Below are positions 3,133 to 39,592 of a stretch of 64,000 bases of DNA, in pieces. A model generated the notes under the pieces. That model saw only the letters and a program-made list of their open reading frames with translations. It did not search any database and was not told the origin of the DNA. How positions within the stretch are numbered: the stretch's first letter is position 1; the number at the start of each line of letters is the position of its first letter. The stretch comes from a phage, in the sequence record PZ386957.1; one strand, 5' to 3'. The translations under genes were made by a program, and so were the position numbers.

Positions 3133-4158
3133 CTAATTTTTTGCGCTATTTACTTCGGCTAAAAGTTCATCAGAAATACGCTTGACCGCCGCAAGTTCTT
3201 CCGGTTCTAGGTTTTGTTCTTCCAGATATTCATAGACCATCTGAATAGTGCTTTTAACCTCAATAACACCAGTTTCCTGTGATGCGCTACTCTCCAGCTT
3301 ATGGACCACTTTTAGCTTGTGTACAACGGCCTCTAACGCGCTTTCTAACTTAGTTAACCCATTATCAGCGACCGTTGCGATAAGACGCACACTAAGCCCC
3401 TTATAGCGTTCTACATCGATTTTATCATCTGACGGGTAAGTGATACGCACATGATAAGTTTTGTCGTTCTGGATAAACTCTTTTTTGTGTGTATCGGTAT
3501 CAAATACCCAAAAACCACGCGGATCATTTTCGTCACCAGCCGTTAGTGTGTATGGTGTACCGATATACGTTACGTTACCGCCATCACTGATAGTATGAAA
3601 GTGACCAGAAAACACTTCACGGTATTTCTTGAGGAAGTCCGCGCTATAACCTTCGGATTTTAACCCTTTATAGAAATAGTAACCGGACAATTCCCAATGA
3701 CCTACACAATATTCGCTAAATGAATTTTGAATAAACTCTAAAACCTCGGATTTATTGTCATCACAAAACCACGGGAACAGGTCGAATGATACCCCGTCAA
3801 AGCTAACGGTTTCCGGCTTATCAATGACCTTAATGCAATCATACTGGCTTAACACTTCACGCGGTGCGTTAGGCTGGATCTTGTTTCGTTTAAACATATC
3901 ATGATTGCCTACCGTGATATAACAGGTGATTCCTGCCTCTTCCAGTAATGGGATGACCTTAGTACGGTTAAATTTCATGGTTTCATGAGTTATCGCCTTG
4001 CGGCAATCAAACCAATCCCCTGTCTGAATCCATGTCTTAATATCATGTTCTTTTGAGTATTCAACCGCTTTCTTGATGGTATCAAGAATATAATCATGTA
4101 CCCACGGATCATCGCCACCGATACCAGTATGCAGATCACCCAAAAGCAAAATTTTCAT
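3133..4158 (-). CDS. 47: Recombination endonuclease subunit gp47 (SbcD/Mre11-like phosphoesterase)
   Basis: 341 aa; calcineurin-like motifs LGDLHTG, TGDWFD, GNHDMF; T4 gp47 is about 339 aa. Confidence 0.9.
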   Translation of the reverse strand: MKILLLGDLHTGIGGDDPWVHDYILDTIKKAVEYSKEHDIKTWIQTGDWFDCRKAITHETMKFNRTKVIPLLEEAGITCYITVGNHDMFKRNKIQPNAPREVLSQYDCIKVIDKPETVSFDGVSFDLFPWFCDDNKSEVLEFIQNSFSEYCVGHWELSGYYFYKGLKSEGYSADFLKKYREVFSGHFHTISDGGNVTYIGTPYTLTAGDENDPRGFWVFDTDTHKKEFIQNDKTYHVRITYPSDDKIDVERYKGLSVRLIATVADNGLTKLESALEAVVHKLKVVHKLESSASQETGVIEVKSTIQMVYEYLEEQNLEPEELAAVKRISDELLAEVNSAKN

Positions 4159-21598: not shown

Positions 21599-21889
21599 TC
21601 AAATGGTAGTTTTGCGAAGATGGTCATTACATGCTTTTAATGCATCAGTCGCGGTGTCATAGCGAGTATTATCATAGCACCAATCACCATCCGTCAACTG
21701 ATAAATTAATCCATCCTTTTTAGCTTCGATGAAAGATAACTCTTTGAAAGTTTCTACTTTCTTTGCTGACACTCCACGGTCACGGCGTTTGTAAAGTTTC
21801 TTTAAAACTCTTTCCGCTTGTTCTTCTTTCTCGCCAGACAGATCCCAGATAATGCTACGGATATGTTTGATCATTTGTTCGGTGTTCAT
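21599..21889 (-). CDS. Hypothetical protein
   Basis: 96-aa ORF after promoter/leader 21919-21946. Confidence 0.5.
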   Translation of the reverse strand: MNTEQMIKHIRSIIWDLSGEKEEQAERVLKKLYKRRDRGVSAKKVETFKELSFIEAKKDGLIYQLTDGDWCYDNTRYDTATDALKACNDHLRKTTI

Positions 21890-21918
21890 CTTTGATTCTC
21901 CTTAGTTGGTATGTGCGC

Positions 21919-21946
21919 ATTATAACATTGGGATTTTCATTGTCAA
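21919..21946 (-). promoter_or_regulatory. Promoter TTGACA-16-TATAAT
   Basis: Minus-strand read; immediately downstream of terminator 21958-21988; RBS AAGGAG. Confidence 0.7.
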
Positions 21947-21957
21947 CACCTAAAAAC

Positions 21958-21988
21958 AAAAAGGCTATCCCGAAGGACAGCCCATAAA
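21958..21988 (-). terminator. Intrinsic terminator after the glycine-rich protein gene
   Basis: GGGCTGTCC-TTCG-GGATAGCC hairpin then TTTTTGTTTTT. Confidence 0.7.
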
Positions 21989-21990
21989 AA

Positions 21991-22809
21991 TTACACGCGA
22001 GCACCGTAGATCGTGCCAACTTTAGTCCATGTTGGGGCATTACCAGTAACAGCTTTACCAGCAGCACCACCAGGCCACGGAACACCAGCGCGACCAGTAC
22101 CATCATACCATGAGTCGTTAGCCTTAGCACCTGCTTGACCAGCGTCACCACCGTTACCAGCATAATATATATTACCGTTATACGATCCTCTACCCGGCGC
22201 GGTATATGTAGCAGCGGTTGACCCTATTTCCATGTTGGAATATGCACCAGCCGCACCATAAGGACGACCACCACCACCACCCATTGACAACCCAATGATC
22301 GGATAATATGAGTAATAAGCACCGCCACCGCCACCGCCACCGCCAGCGATGACACCATTATTTGTGATGCGTAGACGTGTACCGATACCATTATTGATAG
22401 CAGTCCCGCCAGCTTGTCCAGGACCAGTGCTGGAATTAGTACCGCCATCACCACCCTTACCACCACGACCCCAAACATGGACACCTGGGTTAATGTTTAA
22501 TGTAATATACTCATTAGCAAGATCGCTAGGAAAATCGAGACACGGAACACTAGCAGAATGAGAAACAATATCCCCGGTAATGGTAATTACTACCGGAGTA
22601 GACCCGTGTGATCTTAGATAACTAATCAAAGTATCTTTATTGTAACTATGGTTAGACCCAATACTATAATAAACCTCTTTAGAACGTCCCACCATCGCAC
22701 TCATCCAAGCCGGACGACCTAAGCGTACAGCTTCCATTGCGGCACTCATCCACCGTTGGCCTGTTTCATTAACGGCAGATGATCCTACCCATCCAGAAGA
22801 TATTGCCAT
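21991..22809 (-). CDS. Glycine-rich protein (N-terminal globular region + Gly/Tyr-rich low-complexity region)
   Basis: 272 aa; runs GGGGGGGG, GGKGGDGG, MGGGGGRPYGAAG; correct strand and terminator; alt-frame ORFs over it are GC artefacts. Confidence 0.6.
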   Translation of the reverse strand: MAISSGWVGSSAVNETGQRWMSAAMEAVRLGRPAWMSAMVGRSKEVYYSIGSNHSYNKDTLISYLRSHGSTPVVITITGDIVSHSASVPCLDFPSDLANEYITLNINPGVHVWGRGGKGGDGGTNSSTGPGQAGGTAINNGIGTRLRITNNGVIAGGGGGGGGAYYSYYPIIGLSMGGGGGRPYGAAGAYSNMEIGSTAATYTAPGRGSYNGNIYYAGNGGDAGQAGAKANDSWYDGTGRAGVPWPGGAAGKAVTGNAPTWTKVGTIYGARV

Positions 22810-27363: not shown

Positions 27364-27960
27364 TTATTGGGTAGTACCATCAGTAAAATGTTTACGACAA
27401 ACAGAAACATATTTATCCTCGGCACCGACTTCTATTTGAGCACCATCACGGATAACGTTTCCATCTTTATCAACACGAAGGACCATTGTCGCTTTCTTGC
27501 CACAATGACAGATACCCTTCATTTCGACCAGTTTATCAGCCAATGCCATTAATGCCGCAGATCCTTCAAATAAATTTCCCTGAAAGTCGGTGCGAAGTCC
27601 ATAGCACAAAACAGGGATATTGGCATCATCAACCAGTGCACATAAGCCTAAAACATGTTCTTTAGTCATAAATTGGGCTTCATCCACAAATACAGCATCA
27701 GGACGCCAGCGTTCCGGTCTACGCTTACCTAGTGATTCACGGTACACAAGGTCGAAAAGATCATCAGATTTAGTGAATGTGATCGCTGGAGCACTTAGAC
27801 CAATCCGTGAAACAACTTCACTTTCTGAATCTCGATTATCAATCGCTGGTTTAAGAATTAATACTCGCATATCACGTTCTGTATAGTTATAAGCACTTTG
27901 TAACAGGGAAGTAGACTTACCAGCGTTCATAGATGCATAGTAGAAATATAGTTGCGCCAT
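27364..27960 (-). CDS. tk: Thymidine kinase
   Basis: 198 aa; Walker A MNAGKST; FVDEAQF; CHCGKKA zinc motif; matches T4 Tk throughout. Confidence 0.92.
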   Translation of the reverse strand: MAQLYFYYASMNAGKSTSLLQSAYNYTERDMRVLILKPAIDNRDSESEVVSRIGLSAPAITFTKSDDLFDLVYRESLGKRRPERWRPDAVFVDEAQFMTKEHVLGLCALVDDANIPVLCYGLRTDFQGNLFEGSAALMALADKLVEMKGICHCGKKATMVLRVDKDGNVIRDGAQIEVGAEDKYVSVCRKHFTDGTTQ

Positions 27961-28253
27961 TAATTAATCTCCAAAAATCCAGCAAGACCTAAACCGATAT
28001 AAGTCCAGATACCAATGAAAAAGATGTTAATACTCATGGCAAGGATAAACCCTTTTAGCGTTTTAGGATACCCAACCCAATATTCCCGACCATCTTCTAA
28101 CCGGATCAGTTTATTGCCTTGCGAGTCCATATCAACTACAACATGTTTATTTCGAGATTGCAATAGATATTGGTTTACAATCTCTACACCAGCCATAATA
28201 CAAATAACGAAAAGAAAAGTCCACACAACAAGATTAATGATAGTCTCAAGCAT
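27960..28253 (-). CDS. Membrane protein (2 TM)
   Basis: 97 aa; N- and C-terminal hydrophobic helices. Confidence 0.5.
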   Translation of the reverse strand: MLETIINLVVWTFLFVICIMAGVEIVNQYLLQSRNKHVVVDMDSQGNKLIRLEDGREYWVGYPKTLKGFILAMSINIFFIGIWTYIGLGLAGFLEIN

Positions 28254-28500: not shown

Positions 28501-28906
28501 TAATGATTTCTTCTACGCATTCCCATTCTAGGCCGCCAATCCCACAACCAATTTTAGGAATATAGAACGGCTTAACAGTACCTTCAAATGCGAAGTTAAG
28601 TTGTTCGAATCCACGGATGATAGCGGAATATTCAGCATTTGGTCCTGGACGGAATTGCGTATAAAGATTAATACCCATCCAGTTATAACCATTAACGGTA
28701 TGATGCCAAACATTAAACTCGCCTAGCTTACTAGCCGTTCCTCTCGGTGTCTTTTTGTCAGTAGCCAATGCTTGTGGGAACTCTTTTGCGATCTTTGCAG
28801 CAATACCAGCGCCCATAGTATGAAAACAATTACAACCATGAATCAAATGACCGTTTCCTTGTTTAAACAGGGCGATGAGATCGCCCTTTACAGTATCAAT
28901 AATCAT
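28451..28906 (-). CDS. Macro-domain protein (TARG1/OARD1-like ADP-ribose hydrolase fold)
   Basis: 151 aa; GDLIALFKQGNGHLIHGCNCFHTMGAGIAAKIAKEF fits the TARG1-type macro core (H-C-x-x-x-MGAGIA). Confidence 0.6.
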   Translation of the reverse strand: MIIDTVKGDLIALFKQGNGHLIHGCNCFHTMGAGIAAKIAKEFPQALATDKKTPRGTASKLGEFNVWHHTVNGYNWMGINLYTQFRPGPNAEYSAIIRGFEQLNFAFEGTVKPFYIPKIGCGIGGLEWECVEEIINDFTPDINIVVVEYEA

Positions 28907-33099: not shown

Positions 33100-33489
33100 T
33101 TATTTTGGATCTGGGTAAGCAGAACTCAGCAATTCAAAATGCACACCGTCTTTGAATGCCAAAAAATCCCCGCCCCATTTAATCGGAATATTCAATTCCT
33201 TACTAGCTTGTTTAAATGCATCAGCGATCATTCGGTAATATTTCATGTTCCATGTATCCTTATCTTTCGGATACGCTACAACATCAACCGCGAAGCCATG
33301 AAGATGGCGAGATTTCATAGTCTTAGACTTACCTTCCGCAAAATATTTCTTCTGCGTTTCCAGACTGCGCACACCTTCCGTAATGCCAAAATCTACAGGA
33401 GTTAATTCAAGTGCGCGAGTCGCCACCTTAACCAGATCTGGATGCACACCAACAAGTCGGTCTTTACTTCTTTGAGATAATTTAAACAT
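33100..33489 (-). CDS. Peptidase M15-type cell-wall hydrolase (putative endolysin, L-Ala-D-Glu peptidase-like)
   Basis: 129 aa; zinc-peptidase motifs SRHLHGFAVD and DGVHFE. Confidence 0.7.
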   Translation of the reverse strand: MFKLSQRSKDRLVGVHPDLVKVATRALELTPVDFGITEGVRSLETQKKYFAEGKSKTMKSRHLHGFAVDVVAYPKDKDTWNMKYYRMIADAFKQASKELNIPIKWGGDFLAFKDGVHFELLSSAYPDPK

Positions 33490-33517: not shown

Positions 33518-33709
33518 TTAGATTCCGGTGATCCTGCATAGAGTTCTTGTATTAGCACCAATCAGGATAGCATTAACGACAACCATTCCCCAATCAACCC
33601 ACGGATTATTATAAATGCTGAATCCGTTTGCAAGGCCAAATACAAGCATTCCGGTACACATACTCAGAGCAATAATCAACATCACGGTAAAACCAAATGC
33701 AAATTTCAT
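33518..33709 (-). CDS. Small membrane protein (2 TM)
   Basis: 63 aa, almost entirely hydrophobic. Confidence 0.5.
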   Translation of the reverse strand: MKFAFGFTVMLIIALSMCTGMLVFGLANGFSIYNNPWVDWGMVVVNAILIGANTRTLCRITGI

Positions 33710-33710
33710 A

Positions 33711-33941
33711 TTATTTTCCTTTTCTCTGTTTACGTTTATAAAAGTAATACATTACCTCATCGCGTCCGGTGATCCAACATGCTAGGGCAGTAAACAAGTT
33801 TACAATTCCCAACACACCTACGGATGCGGCGCTATCAACGGACATAGGAACAGTAAAGGCCATAGCTAGCATCGCAACGCCACAAATGATATTAAGCACC
33901 ATTATAATAAGACCGAAGAAAACCATTGTCAATCCTCCCAA
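33711..33941 (-). CDS. Small membrane protein (2 TM)
   Basis: 76 aa hydrophobic with basic C-terminus. Confidence 0.5.
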   Translation of the reverse strand: MGGLTMVFFGLIIMVLNIICGVAMLAMAFTVPMSVDSAASVGVLGIVNLFTALACWITGRDEVMYYFYKRKQRKGK

Positions 33942-34120
33942 ATAAGAAAACCAACAATCACACCCATAATAAGAGAGGATGCACCACTAATCAAGCAACC
34001 CGCGCCAAGTGATTCCCACCAGATCAGGGAAGCGACAATAACGCAAAATCCCCAGACTACCGCAATTATAACATAGACAAACATAATCCAAAATAGATAC
34101 TTGTTCATAATAAATCCCAT
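33929..34120 (-). CDS. Small membrane protein (2 TM)
   Basis: 63 aa hydrophobic. Confidence 0.5.
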   Translation of the reverse strand: MGFIMNKYLFWIMFVYVIIAVVWGFCVIVASLIWWESLGAGCLISGASSLIMGVIVGFLIWED

Positions 34121-34293
34121 TCACCAATCAAATATGAAAATAGCCAAATAAACAGAAACGAGACAATTGATCCAGCAAGCAAAATAATATTAGAGAATCC
34201 GCCGTTTATCCAGTCGATCAAACAGAATATTCCAGTATAGAAACACAACCCAATTACAAAACAGACGATAAGCAACCATAGGTAAAACGCCAT
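34105..34293 (-). CDS. Small membrane protein (2 TM)
   Basis: 62 aa hydrophobic. Confidence 0.5.
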   Translation of the reverse strand: MAFYLWLLIVCFVIGLCFYTGIFCLIDWINGGFSNIILLAGSIVSFLFIWLFSYLIGEWDLL

Positions 34294-34515
34294 AGAAAGC
34301 CCTCCAGTGAGCTAAATTAGTGCGGGTAGTACATTCTCCTACCCGCGTTGTTAATCATCGTATAGCGTGTTCTATGGCGACTCCTACAAGGCCACTAACA
34401 ACACCAGTACAGAAAGCAACTAGAGCATTCATTCGGTCTTTAGGGATCATTGCAAACAGTACAACACCCACACAGAAAGCCATCACCATTGAAGTTAACA
34501 TTTGTTCCATCATTA

Positions 34516-34854
34516 TTACACCTTTAAAGTCATAGACGCATAAACATTAATACCAGGCCAATTGGGATCACAATTATACTCAACATCCCACAAATAAAGC
34601 GGTTTGGATGTATCAGCCAAGTTTTTAAAATCTTCTACCCACATTTCAAGGCTATAGGATGGATAAACTAGGCTATCATATCCACCGTAACGTTGGCCTA
34701 CTGGTCTGTCAGTAAAAACTACCTCAAGATCCGGTAATTCTTTTTCTAGGATAACCGCCAGCGCATAAATCAGGCGGTCTTCCTTGTTACGCTGCCGTAG
34801 GACCGTTGTCAGTTGGTTCTTCTGGTTCACTAGCAAGTACCTCCACATTTTCAC
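34516..34854 (-). CDS. Hypothetical protein
   Basis: 112-aa soluble ORF. Confidence 0.45.
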   Translation of the reverse strand: MKMWRYLLVNQKNQLTTVLRQRNKEDRLIYALAVILEKELPDLEVVFTDRPVGQRYGGYDSLVYPSYSLEMWVEDFKNLADTSKPLYLWDVEYNCDPNWPGINVYASMTLKV

Positions 34855-35125
34855 AGAATGAAATTTTCACGGACACAATTTTACCATAAGTGAAGAATGA
34901 ATATACATTATCGAGATATTCAACATCACCTACAATCACATCAAACTGCGGGTCAGCCACTGCCGCAACATATTCTACCAGTTCATCAAGAGAATGCAAC
35001 TTAATTTCATCAATTCGGCTATATTTGGTTGCATCTTTAATTTTAAAACCACGTTCTTTCAGCTTATCAATCAGAATTTCACGCGGAGTTTCAAACAGTT
35101 TGCTCATAATATAATCCTCACACAA
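34787..35125 (-). CDS. Hypothetical protein
   Basis: 112-aa ORF; start likely the internal MSKLFETP. Confidence 0.45.
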   Translation of the reverse strand: MCEDYIMSKLFETPREILIDKLKERGFKIKDATKYSRIDEIKLHSLDELVEYVAAVADPQFDVIVGDVEYLDNVYSFFTYGKIVSVKISFCENVEVLASEPEEPTDNGPTAA

Positions 35126-35129
35126 TTAA

Positions 35130-35324
35130 TCAATGGTCAATAATCTTACACATTACAATTGAAAGAACAAAGACAGCAACCCACATATAGATCCCAGCAA
35201 TCAGGGCAATTTCAATCTCACAGTATCCAAGAAGTACAACAGGAATAAAAACAAACATACAGACCAGCGCAAAGAAACTAGCAAAGGCGCTCGAAAATCC
35301 GATGGCAGTATTAGTAATCTTCAT
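35130..35324 (-). CDS. Small membrane protein (2 TM)
   Basis: 64 aa hydrophobic. Confidence 0.5.
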   Translation of the reverse strand: MKITNTAIGFSSAFASFFALVCMFVFIPVVLLGYCEIEIALIAGIYMWVAVFVLSIVMCKIIDH

Positions 35325-35330
35325 ATTAAG

Positions 35331-35528
35331 TCATCTCACAGTTTTATAAATGAAAACAATAAAATCCCAGACAAAAAAGACAGTGAAAATAATCATCGTC
35401 AAGACAGTAAACACTGTCAGATTTTCATCGTTAGTTAATTCATAGTCGCCCATCCATACAATCACAAGATATAGCATTGAAAGAACGGAAGCACCTACGA
35501 AGTTGAAAAACATATTCTTGAGCGTCAT
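35331..35528 (-). CDS. Small membrane protein (2 TM)
   Basis: 65 aa hydrophobic. Confidence 0.5.
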   Translation of the reverse strand: MTLKNMFFNFVGASVLSMLYLVIVWMGDYELTNDENLTVFTVLTMIIFTVFFVWDFIVFIYKTVR

Positions 35529-35529
35529 A

Positions 35530-35712
35530 TTAACAATCCTCGCGGCTTAAGTCAACTGCAATTGCATACAGCATAATGAATATGCTAGCAGATCCTAGAA
35601 TCAATGCACCTTCACATGTTGTAACCCGCTCGTCAAAGTATAGCATCAGCCATCCGAGGATGTTAAAGGCGCATACAGCGCCTATGTTGGCTAACCAATT
35701 AATCTTTTTCAT
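35530..35712 (-). CDS. Small membrane protein
   Basis: 60 aa hydrophobic. Confidence 0.5.
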   Translation of the reverse strand: MKKINWLANIGAVCAFNILGWLMLYFDERVTTCEGALILGSASIFIMLYAIAVDLSREDC

Positions 35713-35720
35713 ATTGTACC

Positions 35721-36048
35721 TTAGAAAGAAACTGTTTTCAAGAAATCCAGATTTTCAGTGCCGAAAGTAGAAAAGTAGTGTTTTCCTTTTTCGGTTTTAG
35801 AGAAAGCGATTGTCTTCTCTACATGGTGACGGAAGCCAGACAGACGATCACCCAGATCAAGGCGGCAAGCGTAAGTAGTGCCGTTTTCGAAAGTAACCTC
35901 GATTTGAGTTTTGTCATATTCGCCTTCATAGGCTTTTGCTGCGGCGTCCTGTGCTTTACGCTCGAAGTCTTCGAAGTGGAATACTTCGTTTGCGTTAGCG
36001 AATACGGAAGATTCAGAGAAGATAACTTTAACAGATACTGGTTTCATT
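35721..36048 (-). CDS. Hypothetical protein
   Basis: Start reassigned to MKPVSVKV after promoter/leader 36085-36113; about 109 aa. Confidence 0.5.
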
Positions 36049-36084
36049 TTGATACTCCTTTGTGTGTTTCGTTTCGATGGGTGT

Positions 36085-36113
36085 ATTATGCTATACACCC
36101 TATCGTATGTCAA
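36085..36113 (-). promoter_or_regulatory. Promoter TTGACA-17-CATAAT, -10 inside inverted repeat GGGTGTAT...ATACACCC, CATCGAAACGAAACAC leader
   Basis: Minus-strand read upstream of 35721-36048. Confidence 0.65.
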
Positions 36114-36120
36114 CAACTTT

Positions 36121-36309
36121 TTAGTCTTTTTTCATAATTTCTAGGGCAGCTTCTACCGCACCTTTCCAACCTTCCCACATGATGGACATGGTAAGGAAGT
36201 TAAAGCACCCGCAGGAATCGGCCTTTTTAGAAATAAACCATTCTACAAACTCTGTGCTAATGCCATTCTCTTTAGCAGATTCGCGCAGTTGTTCAATCTG
36301 GTCTTCCAT
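36121..36309 (-). CDS. Hypothetical protein
   Basis: 62-aa ORF. Confidence 0.45.
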   Translation of the reverse strand: MEDQIEQLRESAKENGISTEFVEWFISKKADSCGCFNFLTMSIMWEGWKGAVEAALEIMKKD

Positions 36310-36318
36310 AGTATCACC

Positions 36319-36507
36319 TCAACACTTAACGTTATTCAAACGGTTTTGAAAATAAACATAACATGCATAATTCTGTTTTGGCTGTACCGTATCAGATAAG
36401 CACGCTTTTACCGCTTCGCGATCCGATGGATCTACACCCTCAGCTTTAAGTAGTGCTAAGATCTGGTAGTAGCGTTCTCTCAGTTGCGCTAATGGTTTCT
36501 CTCCCAT
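36319..36507 (-). CDS. Hypothetical protein
   Basis: 62-aa ORF. Confidence 0.45.
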   Translation of the reverse strand: MGEKPLAQLRERYYQILALLKAEGVDPSDREAVKACLSDTVQPKQNYACYVYFQNRLNNVKC

Positions 36508-36516
36508 AATACCCCC

Positions 36517-36738
36517 TTACAGTTGATCAGCAATGTAAGCATGACAAGCTCGAAGTTTCATTAATGCACTACCTTTCACTTCGCCTACGATGTTCATAAC
36601 TTCTAAGCGGTCAGATGGATTCATTTTAGAGCACCAGATCTGGTTAGCCAGTTCCAGCTTGCTCATATTAGGTTCCATCTCAAACAGTTCACGCTCAAAG
36701 TCGATAATTTCTTTTGCTGCTTCTTTAAAGTTGATCAT
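36517..36738 (-). CDS. Hypothetical protein
   Basis: 73-aa ORF after promoter 36768-36796. Confidence 0.5.
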   Translation of the reverse strand: MINFKEAAKEIIDFERELFEMEPNMSKLELANQIWCSKMNPSDRLEVMNIVGEVKGSALMKLRACHAYIADQL

Positions 36739-36767
36739 TTTGATTCTCCCGTTCAGTTGATGGGTGT

Positions 36768-36796
36768 ATTGTAGGGGAGTTGTCCTCCCCTGTCAA
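36768..36796 (-). promoter_or_regulatory. Promoter TTGACA-17-TACAAT, spacer palindrome GGGGAG-GACAA-CTCCCC
   Basis: Minus-strand read upstream of 36517-36738. Confidence 0.6.
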
Positions 36797-36806
36797 CACT
36801 TTTTTA

Positions 36807-36992
36807 TTAGAAATATGCAATATAGTTTGCCAGTCCTACAGAGTCATCATTCGGCATTGCTTTTACTGCCAGTTCAAATCCTGCTTCAACTTTCTGTTTA
36901 GCGGATTCTTCGTTATAACCCCAGATCACCAGAATAGCTACTACGTTTTCTTTGCTTACTGCTTTCAGTGCTTTAGTGATGCGACGTGCCAT
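36807..36992 (-). CDS. Hypothetical protein
   Basis: 61-aa ORF after promoter/leader 37039-37068. Confidence 0.45.
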   Translation of the reverse strand: MARRITKALKAVSKENVVAILVIWGYNEESAKQKVEAGFELAVKAMPNDDSVGLANYIAYF

Positions 36993-37038
36993 AATTTGAT
37001 TCTCCTAGTTAGAAAGTGTATCTCGTTTCGATGGGTGT

Positions 37039-37068
37039 ATTATGCTATAGACCGGATCTGGTGTCAAC
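37039..37068 (-). promoter_or_regulatory. Promoter TTGACA-18-CATAAT with CATCGAAACGAGA leader
   Basis: Minus-strand read upstream of 36807-36992. Confidence 0.55.
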
Positions 37069-37091
37069 AACTTTTTTAAAAAAATTTAGGT

Positions 37092-37120
37092 AATAAAAAA
37101 GCCACTCCGAAGAGTGGCTT
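37092..37120 (-). terminator. Intrinsic terminator capping the ORF-free region
   Basis: AAGCCACTC-TTCG-GAGTGGCTT then TTTTTTATT. Confidence 0.7.
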
Positions 37121-37269
37121 ATAGGGAAGGTAGCGAATCTTCCTTGTCTCCAACCTGCTAGCGGCCTAGCAAGTGAATGCTTTAGCGTACCGGATTACCC
37201 CCATACGCTGTAATAAATGCGGCTAGGTGACGTCCAAATCATTCTAACCGCGCTGTTTTTAGTTCACTA
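37121..37269 (-). ncRNA. Putative structured small RNA (ORF-free, terminator-capped)
   Basis: About 150 nt with no ORF on the coding strand; several local hairpins; ends in intrinsic terminator 37092-37120; T4 carries stable RNAs in the analogous region. Confidence 0.25.
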
Positions 37270-37488
37270 TTATTTATATAGCTTTCTATCGCTACGTTTC
37301 CGGTCTTCTTCCTTGATACAATTAAATGCATCAAACAGACACATACCGCTGATAGTGAACATGATCAGGTTTTCGACGATATCCCACGTTTTAGCCCCTG
37401 TGCAGATATTCCAAACAGTCATAAAAGCAAATAGTGCAGAAGAGATCACAAGCATGATACTTGCTAAGATATAAAAAGTCATTTTCAT
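37270..37488 (-). CDS. Small membrane protein (2 TM)
   Basis: 72 aa hydrophobic. Confidence 0.5.
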   Translation of the reverse strand: MKMTFYILASIMLVISSALFAFMTVWNICTGAKTWDIVENLIMFTISGMCLFDAFNCIKEEDRKRSDRKLYK

Positions 37489-37679
37489 GGTTTTACCTCA
37501 ATTCTTCGATATTCATCACACATCCACGCAGTAAGCAAGAATCCCATCACATAAGCAACAAAATACGTTAATGCTTCTTCTGGTTCGGTGCTATGCGCCA
37601 TCATCAGACCAGCGAGAAAGGTCTTAACAATTACATTTAAAATAATTAGCCACGCAAATAATTTCATCGTTTGCCCCAT
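37485..37679 (-). CDS. Small membrane protein (2 TM)
   Basis: 64 aa hydrophobic. Confidence 0.5.
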   Translation of the reverse strand: MGQTMKLFAWLIILNVIVKTFLAGLMMAHSTEPEEALTYFVAYVMGFLLTAWMCDEYRRIEVKP

Positions 37680-37906
37680 TTCGGACGAGATTTTTCAAAT
37701 TTATACATTCCGTAACAATCTCGGATCATCCACGTAACAAGAGCACCAGTCAATACAGAAAGTACACAGAAAAAGTAAAACGGTCCAGTTGCATTGTCAA
37801 CATGAGCAAGCCAGGTAAAGAAAGCACATGCTAAGAACGTAAAGAACATCATAAAACACAGGAAAGCGAAATATTTTATGCTACTCATAGCGCCACCATA
37901 CAACAA
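37664..37906 (-). CDS. Small membrane protein (2 TM)
   Basis: 80 aa hydrophobic. Confidence 0.5.
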   Translation of the reverse strand: MLYGGAMSSIKYFAFLCFMMFFTFLACAFFTWLAHVDNATGPFYFFCVLSVLTGALVTWMIRDCYGMYKFEKSRPKWGKR

Positions 37907-37991
37907 ATCATAAGAAAGCCCAACGCAATAAGAATTGCATCAAATTTAGTGAACTCCGGTCCACCTATCAACATCATTCGTTCTATCTCGT

Positions 37992-38237
37992 TCATAGCGT
38001 ACATACCCATCTGAAAGCTCCACATAAAGCGATCAGTAGACTAGGTATAAACGAGACTAAAACAAGATAACAAAAATCATCTAAGGTAACACCGGAATAG
38101 CTACCAACTGTAATCACACCGATGATCAGACACAGAAAGAAAACAAATGCAATCAGAAACAAAGTATTGCTAAACAGTTTAGTGATCATTAGACACCCCA
38201 CGACGGTCAATTTCAAAAACTTTCTTATCACCAACAA
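37992..38237 (-). CDS. Small membrane protein
   Basis: 81 aa hydrophobic; start may be internal. Confidence 0.45.
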   Translation of the reverse strand: MLVIRKFLKLTVVGCLMITKLFSNTLFLIAFVFFLCLIIGVITVGSYSGVTLDDFCYLVLVSFIPSLLIALCGAFRWVCTL

Positions 38238-38388
38238 AGCAGGTCACTACCGCCTCGTTGACTTCCGCAAATTGTTGTGTTACCCACTTAAGGTCATTGC
38301 GCATCAATGTTTTATTAATAACAAATGTTGTGCCTTTCTTATCCTTACCCATAAATTTTGCTTTAACCACATCAAAATCATATTCCAT
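38179..38388 (-). CDS. Hypothetical protein
   Basis: 69-aa ORF. Confidence 0.45.
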   Translation of the reverse strand: MEYDFDVVKAKFMGKDKKGTTFVINKTLMRNDLKWVTQQFAEVNEAVVTCFVGDKKVFEIDRRGVSNDH

Positions 38389-38397
38389 ATTATCACC

Positions 38398-38568
38398 TTA
38401 TTTGCTAATCGCTAAACCCAATCCAAAGAGAGCACCCGATGCTACAGTATATCCGAAAGTTTCAAGGGCAGTAAAGATATCGAAGCCACCAGCTAACAGA
38501 GTTGCAGCAAACATAGAGCCACCTGCGAACATAAACACATTTCCAAAAGTTTTAGCAATAATTTTCAT
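38398..38568 (-). CDS. Small hydrophobic Gly-rich peptide (56 aa), unannotated in track
   Basis: Hand-translated MKIIAKTFGNVFMFAGGSMFAATLLAGGFDIFTALETFGYTVASGALFGLGLAISK; RBS AGGAGAA 6 nt upstream; promoter 38600-38628. Confidence 0.55.
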   Translation of the reverse strand: MKIIAKTFGNVFMFAGGSMFAATLLAGGFDIFTALETFGYTVASGALFGLGLAISK

Positions 38569-38599
38569 GTTGATTCTCCTCTCGTTTGTTTGTGGGGGT

Positions 38600-38628
38600 A
38601 TCTTACTACCCCCGTTTCATGTTGTCAA
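38600..38628 (-). promoter_or_regulatory. Promoter TTGACA-17-TAAGAT, -10 inside inverted repeat GGGGGTAG...TACCCCC
   Basis: Minus-strand read upstream of the 56-aa peptide gene. Confidence 0.6.
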
Positions 38629-38634
38629 TTGTTT

Positions 38635-39012
38635 TTAAGAAAATTTTACTTCGTCTACAATGTCTTTCATGACATTGATTTCCATTCCGGTCAGAACACG
38701 TTGGAACATGTGCTGCACATACGCTTTCAGGTATCCATTTGATGGCTTGCTATCAAAAGTCTTTTTAGTGTAGTAGTCATCACCGAAAGCTACTGTAATT
38801 ACATTTTCGTCGTCGTTCCAAGCGATATAAGCAAATTTGCCGTTATCCCAGAAGCGAGCACTAATTGCTACTTTTGTTGAATCGAATCCTACTTCGCTGT
38901 GAGATTCAAGAACTACTTGCGTGCCAGTTTCTTTATGAATGTAGTAGCGGGATACTAAGTCAAAGTTACGGGTGTAGTGACATTCGAAGTTATCTTTAAA
39001 CATCATCATCAT
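38635..39012 (-). CDS. Hypothetical protein
   Basis: 125-aa ORF starting MMMMFKD after promoter/leader 39051-39079. Confidence 0.55.
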   Translation of the reverse strand: MMMMFKDNFECHYTRNFDLVSRYYIHKETGTQVVLESHSEVGFDSTKVAISARFWDNGKFAYIAWNDDENVITVAFGDDYYTKKTFDSKPSNGYLKAYVQHMFQRVLTGMEINVMKDIVDEVKFS

Positions 39013-39121: not shown

Positions 39122-39592
39122 TTACAGTTTGGTCGTCCACTCCAGATCTAGATCTTCGACATACTCATGAGATCGGACAATCTCTAAATCGAACTCTAGG
39201 TCAGTGCCAAATTTACGCGCACCAACATCATAAGAAAGCGTGATATGCGGTACATATTCAGGATAATCCCACGTCGCACCTAAAGCAGTTCCGATATCGT
39301 GTCTGAATTGCATGTAGTCGCTTTCAAATGCCAGCACAAGTGCATTAGTACCGGATTGAGTTTCAAACACTTTCAGATGGCATAGAGAGCCTAAGAACTT
39401 CTCCCCTTCTTCTGGGATAAACGGAACATAAACACGAGAATATAAGATAGTGCTATGCAGTTTATCACGAGGAACGGCATTAGGAAGATCGTAGAACTCT
39501 TGCAATTTTTCAATGCGGTCTAGTGTATCCTCAGTGAATTTAACCGCCGCATATGTACCTTTAACGGATTCTTTGAACGGGGTCATAATCAA
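39122..39592 (-). CDS. 57B: 2H phosphoesterase (gene 57B position; Acb1-like)
   Basis: 156 aa; two H-x-T/S-x motifs (LHSTIL, PHITLS) diagnostic of the 2H superfamily; located upstream of 57A/1 as in T4. Confidence 0.7.
   Translation of the reverse strand: MIMTPFKESVKGTYAAVKFTEDTLDRIEKLQEFYDLPNAVPRDKLHSTILYSRVYVPFIPEEGEKFLGSLCHLKVFETQSGTNALVLAFESDYMQFRHDIGTALGATWDYPEYVPHITLSYDVGARKFGTDLEFDLEIVRSHEYVEDLDLEWTTKL

Follow-up and report, generated by a model that had tools for sequence, protein, structure and literature searches.

Five predicted membrane microproteins at the distal end of the dmd operon in a Krischvirus phage

What might a phage gain from a run of very small hydrophobic genes packed end to end on one strand? 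The question is raised by positions 37270 to 38237 of a 64,000-nucleotide stretch of phage DNA (sequence record PZ386957.1), which is referred to below as the window. A sequence-only reading of the window had described this locus as a cluster of four small membrane-protein genes, the second of two such clusters. The overlapping hydrophobic small open reading frames (ORFs) are indeed present, and they lie on the minus strand; however, they make up five contiguous genes, not four, which we designate A to E. From the arrangement of genes and signals described below, A-E are assigned to the distal part of the dmd operon, in which a sixth hydrophobic gene (U) lies upstream of dmd. The five products are very probably real early inner-membrane microproteins.

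Over its full length, the 1.8-kb segment that surrounds the locus matched 59 phage records at 90 to 95% nucleotide identity, all of them from Krischvirus. On these matches the window is placed in this genus of RB49-like coliphages of the Straboviridae, which includes RB49, phi1, JSE and GEC-3S. Since the closest of the 59 GenBank records showed ~92% nucleotide identity, leaving the window alleles ~8% diverged at the DNA level, the phage diverges somewhat, by sequence identity, from the rest of the genus. GC skew indicated transcription on the minus strand across approximately the first 43 kb of the window. The locus sits in a gene-dense early region that was termed a hyperplastic region by Arbiol et al. 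in 2010 (PMC2839356). Annotations were compared with those of RB49, GEC-3S, Phi1, phiS, Skers, Brandy, JEP8, Makalu_003, SSG23, G2248 and JSE, and conservation was assessed in 15 relatives, comprising 11 GenBank phages and 4 divergent metagenomic contigs.

The gene models could be defined as follows. Gene A (37992..38189, minus strand) encodes the 65-residue orthologue of RB49p122, a hairpin with two transmembrane (TM) segments that TMHMM places at residues 5-27 and 42-64; it is preceded by the Shine-Dalgarno (SD) motif GGGGTG, and phrog_17225 covers residues 1-65 of 65. The 81-residue ORF proposed earlier at this position, with a TTG start at 38237, is over-extended, and the ATG at 38189 is the likely start. 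Gene B (37885..37995, minus strand), the RB49p121 orthologue, encodes 36 residues with a single C-terminal TM segment (TMHMM 13-35 on a 41-residue form), and phrog_15282 covers 36 of 36 residues. It occupies what had appeared as a gap at 37906-37992 and had been missed. More than one start is conceivable for B: 14 of the 15 relatives retain the ATGA start, an upstream ATG at 38010 with a GGAG SD motif would give 41 residues, and an invariant downstream ATG-ATG (37977/37974) would give 29 to 30 residues. The TM segment is contained in every version. Gene C (37664..37888, minus strand; RB49p120 orthologue; phrog_15290) encodes a 74-residue two-TM hairpin with a basic C-terminal tail (seven K/R); its earlier 80-residue model was likewise over-extended, to a TTG at 37906, and the ATG at 37888 is the likely start. 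Gene D (37485..37667, minus strand; RB49p119 orthologue) encodes a 60-residue two-TM hairpin with an acidic loop (STEPEE), covered over 60 of 60 residues by phrog_15717. Its probable start is 37667; use of the ATG at 37679, further upstream, would lengthen the protein to 64 residues. Gene E (37270..37488, minus strand; RB49p118 orthologue; phrog_15168) encodes a 72-residue hairpin with a highly charged C-terminal tail. The ATG starts of A, C and D were preferred because they match the RB49, GEC-3S and JSE annotations and the full-length PHROG profiles; those of A and C are also accompanied by SD-like motifs. Each of the five proteins matched its own PHROG family end to end (E values of 1.5e-28 to 1.4e-52), and these families are separate and have no assigned function.

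In each of A-E, one or more 19-residue Kyte-Doolittle windows scored 2.1 or higher, with a maximum of 3.17 in A, compared with no more than 1.25 in the neighbouring soluble ORFs. Two TM segments were called by hydropathy in A, C and D, one in B, and one strong and one weaker segment in E. Published TMHMM results for the RB49 orthologues list two TM segments in ORF118c, ORF119c, ORF120c, ORF122c and ORF124c and one in ORF121c (Nolan et al. 2006, Additional File 2). AlphaFold2 modeled both E (helices at 2-29 and 34-71 joined by a turn; predicted local distance difference test score, pLDDT, of 74.9) and C (helices at 3-31 and 35-67; pLDDT of 67.8) as helical hairpins. Hydropathy, the published TMHMM calls and AlphaFold2 thus support the earlier description as a cluster of small membrane-protein genes, and TM prediction, which had been proposed as a check on it, came out in its favor. 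The termini of A, C, D and E together carry 22 K/R residues, as opposed to 1 K/R and 8 D/E in the inter-helix loops. Because of this distribution, the positive-inside rule predicts an N-in/C-in topology with a short acidic periplasmic loop for these four proteins. We infer the inner-membrane insertion and the topology of A-E from such predictions. A fold search of the PDB with the E model gave no match at an E value of 0.001 or below and returned generic helical hairpins only, but such a search tells little about a protein of two helices. By eye, the residues that precede the cysteine in A and C are non-canonical, and a lipoprotein signal (lipobox) was therefore rejected for both.

The five genes were intact and of equal lengths in the 15 relatives, including the divergent metagenomic contigs, at synonymous divergence (dS) values of up to 0.9. 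The only exception was C of SSG23, in which the stop lies three nucleotides early, and no frameshifts were found. Gene order was identical in all 15 relatives, with A-E always together and syntenic downstream of dmd. The cassette was complete in 15 of 15 relatives and, by DNA coverage, in 59 of 59 records; no presence/absence polymorphism was seen in either set. Pooled ratios of nonsynonymous to synonymous divergence (dN/dS) against GenBank relatives were 0.40 for A, 0.14 for B, 0.06 for C, 0.41 for D, 0.16 for E and 0.60 for U. Against the divergent contigs, D showed 0.16 to 0.24 and U 0.14 to 0.22. For the other genes, dN/dS across the comparisons ranged from 0.33 to 0.5 (A), 0.09 to 0.17 (B), 0.05 to 0.16 (C) and 0.16 to 0.34 (E). 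The best one-sided Fisher tests for dN below dS gave p values of 5e-3 (A), 5.5e-5 (B), 6.8e-9 (C), 4.7e-5 (D), 4.5e-7 (E) and 6e-3 (U), and purifying selection is significant on every gene. C is the most constrained of the five and E the most allele-rich, with 76 to 97% identity among relatives and the window allele nearest to metagenomic contigs. The coding status of A-E is well supported, since the ORFs are intact at equal lengths and dN is significantly lower than dS.

Reading of the minus strand and comparison with the annotations of the relatives defined one transcription unit, consisting of a promoter, U, dmd, A, B, C, D, E, an ORF-free tail and a terminator. The unit begins with an early sigma70-type promoter (38600..38628, minus strand; TTGACA-17-TAAGAT), which is also annotated as a promoter in GEC-3S. 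A stem-loop, GGGGGTA...TACCCCC (38592-38615, minus strand), lies within this promoter and makes it a PeSL cassette. A PeSL flanks ORFans and combines a consensus sigma70 promoter, which has an AT-rich stretch upstream, with a G-rich/C-rich stem-loop next to it or embedded in it; experiments in phi1/RB49 showed that PeSLs both promote and terminate transcription (Arbiol et al. 2010, PMC2839356). Both ends of the unit have this form: TTGACA...GGGGGTAgtaagaTACCCCC...TAAGAT is found at 38628-38600, and at 37120-37039 a terminator stem is followed by an A/T tract and then by TTGACA-17-CATAAT. The intrinsic terminator that ends the operon (37099..37120, minus strand) has a 9-base-pair stem, a UUCG loop and a T-run, and it is also annotated in GEC-3S, Makalu_003 and G2248 and by TransTerm in RB49. 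The next early promoter (37039..37067, minus strand; TTGACA-17-CATAAT) marks the operon boundary and starts a downstream unit with a DUF7421 gene (36807-36992). Within the unit, the start ATG of A sits 11 nucleotides inside dmd, and ATGA stop/start overlaps occur at all four junctions, A/B, B/C, C/D and D/E. The four overlaps are kept in all relatives, and the SD motifs are likewise conserved. The T4-type late-promoter consensus TATAAATA was not found upstream of the operon. The promoter consensus and the PeSL literature suggest that transcription of the operon is immediate-early.

The first gene of the operon, U (38398..38568, minus strand; SD GAGGAG), encodes a Gly/Ala-rich hydrophobic protein of 56 residues and is the RB49p124 orthologue (phrog_16462, E value of 4e-25); published TMHMM gives two TM segments for RB49ORF124c. 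The window allele has four extra N-terminal residues compared to the 52-residue RB49-type allele, and it is 94.6% identical to the metagenomic contigs L012-L014, closer than to any GenBank phage. The second gene, dmd (38179..38388, minus strand), encodes a soluble protein of 69 residues that belongs to phrog_2102, is annotated as dmd in relatives and shows 46% identity to T4/T6 Dmd; its PF17587 score of 57.8 bits lies above the Pfam gathering cut-off of 27. Dmd (discriminator of mRNA degradation) is the antitoxin that shields T4 from RnlA/LsoA-type toxins. Its length varies within the genus (64, 67 or 69 residues), and in JSE-type genomes dmd and A overlap by 1 nucleotide rather than 11.

The distribution of the families is narrow. 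A tblastn search with A, C and E against 50,697 phage records matched exactly the 59 Krischvirus genomes. In a word-indexed search of 5.8 billion proteins, all relatives of C showed at least 96% identity and E returned only alleles at 76 to 97%. An exhaustive search of 1.84 billion cluster representatives with a HMMER profile of the E family recovered only its own cluster. Scans of the hydrophobic proteins of the operon with Pfam, NCBIfam and PADLOC gave sub-threshold noise only, and blastn of the locus against 5,426 E. coli genomes found no similar DNA. On these searches, A-E are ORFan families confined to Krischvirus. A literature search found no functional study of A-E, the only relevant sources being the TMHMM table of 2006 and the PeSL paper of 2010.

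The first cluster (33518-35712, minus strand) contains eight proteins of 52 to 71 residues with one or two TM segments, orthologues of RB49 ORF103c-107c and ORF110c-112c, and is interrupted by two soluble ORFs. No Pfam match above noise was found for the eight proteins, and no kinship to each other or to A-E could be detected. The two clusters are separated by soluble small ORFs and the ORF-free region, as had been described. Homology between the clusters, which had been suggested as a check, was negative by three methods. The best blastp score between or within clusters was 19.6 bits; in shuffles, the best pair averaged 17.7 bits and reached 21.2 at most. With hhalign on family alignments of both clusters, the best probability was 19.9% over 17 columns. 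Smith-Waterman comparison under a hydropathy-preserving block shuffle gave a maximum z of 2.5 over 91 pairs, and a C-terminal motif that seemed to be shared by C and c1_g of the first cluster reached z = 1.1. By these comparisons, the 14 proteins have a common architecture and no detectable common ancestry.

Hydrophobic genes are concentrated here beyond chance. Within 4.7 kb (33518-38189) lie 13 of the 31 small hydrophobic ATG-initiated ORFs of the 64-kb window (Poisson P = 8e-7), and of the 20 novel ORFs with predicted TM segments in the published RB49 table, 13 are located within ORF103c-124c (hypergeometric P = 5e-12). The coding-strand T content of the cluster genes is 0.33 to 0.44, compared with 0.23 to 0.30 in soluble neighbors, and reaches 0.53 at codon position 2. 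Adaptive TM proteins are reported to arise easily from T-rich sequence (PMC7005711).

Divergence across 37270-39012 was mosaic gene by gene. In the comparison with L001-L011, dS was ~0 for D and ~0.05 for the DUF7421 gene, but ~0.4 for both C and the gene at 36517-36738 and ~0.64 for E. This mosaic pattern points to frequent recombination with breakpoints at or inside gene boundaries.

What, then, could these proteins do? In the reading that we rank first, the host RNA polymerase would transcribe U-dmd-A-B-C-D-E as one message right after infection, ending at the terminator, and translation of A-E would be coupled through the ATGA overlaps. The resulting microproteins of ~30 to 75 residues would enter the inner membrane of E. 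coli as N-in/C-in helical hairpins, except for B, which would cross it with one TM segment at its C-terminus. Because A-E are without any other (catalytic) domain, they would be expected to act by helix-helix binding of membrane proteins or by disturbing the bilayer. Their role would be in early conflict at the envelope, either as superinfection exclusion, as with T4 Imm/Sp, or as neutralization of membrane-acting abortive-infection effectors. Several observations led us to place this role first. Dmd is a partner in the operon, and acb1 (39122-39592, minus strand; PF23474, 174 bits), which encodes an anti-CBASS phosphodiesterase, is a neighbor 0.5 kb upstream. The T-even phages provide a precedent in their dmd-sp arrangement, and the genus is without imm and sp; in RB49, whole-genome annotation lacks both genes and tblastn with T6 Imm and Sp gave a best E value of 0.11. 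T6 Imm resembles A-E in size and in its two-TM hydropathy, and random hydrophobic proteins of ~50 residues readily make E. coli resistant to T4 (PMC12557735). In addition, E and A are allelically diverse and divergence is mosaic gene by gene, as would be expected of arms-race genes. Context and analogy thus hint weakly at a conflict function, and we would give an immediate-early operon of inner-membrane microproteins with a role in envelope conflict a probability of roughly 40%.

Several points weigh against this reading. Comparison with PHROGs, Pfam, NCBIfam, PADLOC and T6 Imm yielded no homology to any characterized protein. Guilt by association is weak in the hyperplastic regions of T4-type phages, in which unrelated ORFans are packed together. 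C shows at least 90% identity everywhere at a dN/dS of ~0.06, a pattern more in keeping with a housekeeping-type interaction than with an arms race. That imm and sp are missing is no proof that A-E replace them. Moreover, the TM calls come from a simple hydropathy scale and from TMHMM on orthologues, and the AlphaFold2 confidence is moderate only.

The strong constraint on C would be expected if its partner were a conserved host protein, and this observation leads to a rather unlikely but still plausible alternative, in which A-E are host-takeover modulators that bind and inhibit or re-tune the inner-membrane machinery of the host (transporters, FtsH-type proteases, respiratory or division proteins) in favor of phage production, or act as mild membrane toxins with a part in host shut-off. 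Conflict with other phages or with host defenses would play no part in it. Early expression from a host-sigma70 promoter is compatible with it, as is the resemblance in architecture to bacterial small membrane regulators, which have fewer than 80 residues, single or double TM segments and no further domain. However, the families occur in one phage genus only, whereas a takeover function of general use should have spread further among coliphages. E and A also evolve fast, with multiple alleles, and no similarity to known inhibitors was found.

It is unlikely, in our estimate, that the 14 mutually unrelated hairpin microproteins between the endolysin gene and dmd, five of them in the operon, are a repertoire of TM binders that arose de novo from T-rich sequence. 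Each of them could be tuned to its own partner in the membrane, for example to the membrane-inserting tape measure of a rival phage or to TM effectors of host abortive-infection systems. CBASS/Pycsar TM effectors, Zorya, Kiwa and RexB-like proteins are examples of such membrane effectors. If this reading were true, the repertoire would be a new membrane-embedded class of exclusion or anti-defense proteins that is invisible to homology-based anti-defense finders.

The invariant co-occurrence of A-E, in the same order and at the same lengths, together with the four ATGA overlaps conserved in all relatives, would also fit subunits of one hetero-oligomeric membrane complex, a channel or scaffold of fixed stoichiometry, which would be compatible with several functions. 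We regard this as quite doubtful. The alleles recombine freely, with dS near zero in D next to a highly diverged E and C, which argues against tight co-adaptation, and ATGA coupling is commonplace among unrelated genes of T4-type early operons.

A function in lysis timing, in which class II holin-, pinholin- or antiholin-like proteins would cooperate with the nearby endolysin, seems very improbable. The two-TM, N-in/C-in format at ~60 to 75 residues is that of class II holins, and an endolysin gene of the L-Ala-D-Glu-type peptidase family (M15; 33100-33489) adjoins the first cluster. Pfam also gave sub-threshold holin matches for C (Phage_holin_3_6, E value of 0.13) and c1_g (Phage_holin_3_5, E value of 0.17). 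However, the best of these matches, to Phage_holin_3_6, reached 12.7 bits, whereas the cut-off is 28.4. The operon is headed by an early sigma70 promoter with no late promoter in front of it, and 3.8 kb with several promoters and terminators separate it from the endolysin. Furthermore, RB49 already has a T4-type lysis set with the holin t, the antiholin rI, rI.-1 and the pseT.2/pseT.3 spanins. Finally, chance hydrophobic frames in T-rich DNA or decaying remnants, which the high T content of the coding strand and the lack of homologues outside the genus might suggest, are effectively refuted by dN below dS in every gene, by ORFs intact in 15 relatives apart from the slightly earlier stop in SSG23, by conserved SD sites and overlaps, and by a full-length PHROG family for each protein.

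Downstream of E, the 3' end of the operon carries an ORF-free structured tail (37121..37269, minus strand) of ~150 nucleotides with four predicted hairpins. Its minimum free energy is -66.4 kcal/mol, compared to -45.4 kcal/mol in shuffles (z = -5.0), and it shows 97% column identity in 9 relatives, although the neighboring E has a dS of ~0.6. In this 97% invariant alignment, covariation amounts to one compensatory pair (G-C to A-U). Rfam and tRNA scans of the region including the tail gave nothing above threshold. The late-promoter consensus TATAAATA occurs at 37271..37278 (minus strand), just upstream of the tail, where it overlaps the end of E (the final Y and K codons and the stop codon). 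The motif is kept at this position in 15 of 15 relatives and is one of two minus-strand occurrences in the 64 kb. The tail may be a small RNA, either derived from the 3' untranslated region or transcribed late or independently. Alternatively, its conservation could result from recombinational mosaicism, since the neighboring D and DUF7421 genes have also barely diverged. In the adjacent terminator, the UUCG loop is replaced by GAAA in three metagenomic relatives (L012-L014, positions 3380-3400) while the 9-base-pair stem is kept, a four-base swap that preserves the structure.

Other genes of the neighborhood could be assigned as well. Between the clusters, a protein with an LPD25 domain (PF18840, 54.9 bits) is encoded at 35721-36047 (minus strand); LPD25 is otherwise known from large polyvalent proteins of mobile elements. 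The DUF7421 protein (minus strand; 136 bits), also between the clusters, is almost invariant, with a dN/dS of 0.009. The acb1 gene is labeled "57B RNA ligase" in RB49, Phi1 and other RefSeq records, which is an outdated annotation. Additional small ORFs with two or three strong hydrophobic segments were found in the early region at 21855-22163, 22224-22478, 27960-28253 and 28528-28713 (all minus strand). The ORF at 27960-28253 may be the counterpart of RB49ORF088c, with which it shares size and TM layout.

Part of this picture was already available. Annotation of the A-E orthologues as hypothetical proteins dates back to publication of the RB49 genome, a table of their TM helices appeared in 2006, PHROG families exist, and the cassette architecture was described in 2010. 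As a sequence feature, A-E are ordinary for T4-type hyperplastic regions; clusters of small ORFans with one or two TM segments are also listed for the T4-like phages Aeh1 and RB43 (Nolan et al. 2006). The present analysis adds corrected gene models, the assignment to the dmd operon, quantified selection, strict restriction to the genus, the lack of paralogy among 14 look-alike proteins, the Acb1/Dmd context and the absence of imm and sp. Few products of phage genomes have been studied as little as small membrane proteins. The characterized ones of T4 (Imm, Sp and RI) govern cell entry or lysis. Phages phi1, JSE and similar Krischviruses are used in therapeutic cocktails, and if A-E exclude phages or disarm membrane-acting defenses, cocktail compatibility and host range would be affected. 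The locus is compact, with seven genes, one promoter and one terminator, and adjoins two validated counter-defense genes, which makes it an easy experimental target.

Comparison with known systems places A-E among several familiar formats. The most direct counterparts are RB49 ORF118c-122c and ORF124c, which are orthologues at 76 to 97% amino acid identity with the same order, lengths and overlaps. The PeSL-ORFan cassettes described by Arbiol et al. in RB49/phi1 are likewise units of an early sigma70 promoter and a stem-loop with genus-restricted ORFans. However, the mobile cassettes in that study hold a single ORFan whose presence varies, whereas the dmd cassette has seven genes with an invariant content among relatives.

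Among membrane proteins of other origin, bacterial small inner-membrane regulators of the AcrZ, MgrB and MgtS type consist mostly of TM helices and bind larger membrane proteins. Unlike A-E, they are host-encoded, usually single-TM and individually regulated, and no sequence relationship was found. Class II holins and pinholins, for example S68 of phage 21, have ~70 residues, two TM segments, an N-in/C-in topology and a charged C-terminus. A-E share this format, as judged by the positive-inside rule and the AlphaFold2 hairpins, but holins are late genes that adjoin the endolysin, whereas A-E have an early-type promoter and lie far from the endolysin.

The closest analogies for the proposed role are offered by the exclusion proteins of the T-even phages. 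Downstream of dmd, T6 and VR20 carry 61.4 and next to it sp (spackle, gene 61.3). Sp is an early protein directed to the envelope, and its gene is co-transcribed with dmd from a downstream position, an operon logic shared with A-E. It is the only one of the T6/VR20 dmd-operon proteins with a hydrophobic N-terminal signal. However, Sp, a superinfection-exclusion protein, is secreted to the periplasm and has a soluble domain in addition to its cleavable signal peptide, whereas A-E are predicted integral hairpins with almost no extramembrane mass. No similarity was found between A-E and the T-even dmd-operon proteins (61.4, Sp, 61.2 and 61.1) or T6 Imm. The imm gene lies between genes 42 and 43 in T-even phages and is absent from RB49. 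PF14373, the superinfection immunity family of T6 Imm, had no match at an E value of 1 or below among the 14 small TM proteins, and blastp against T6 Imm gave chance matches only (E values above 3). According to a 2026 preprint (10.64898/2026.03.06.709160), Imm prevents delivery of the genome through its binding to the tape measure protein, which inserts into the membrane. T6 Imm has 83 residues, is an early inner-membrane protein with two hydrophobic segments by the Kyte-Doolittle scale and, like A-E, has no enzymatic domain. A, C, D and E, with two TM segments in 60 to 74 residues and an early-type promoter, share this Imm-like format, their timing and localization being predicted.

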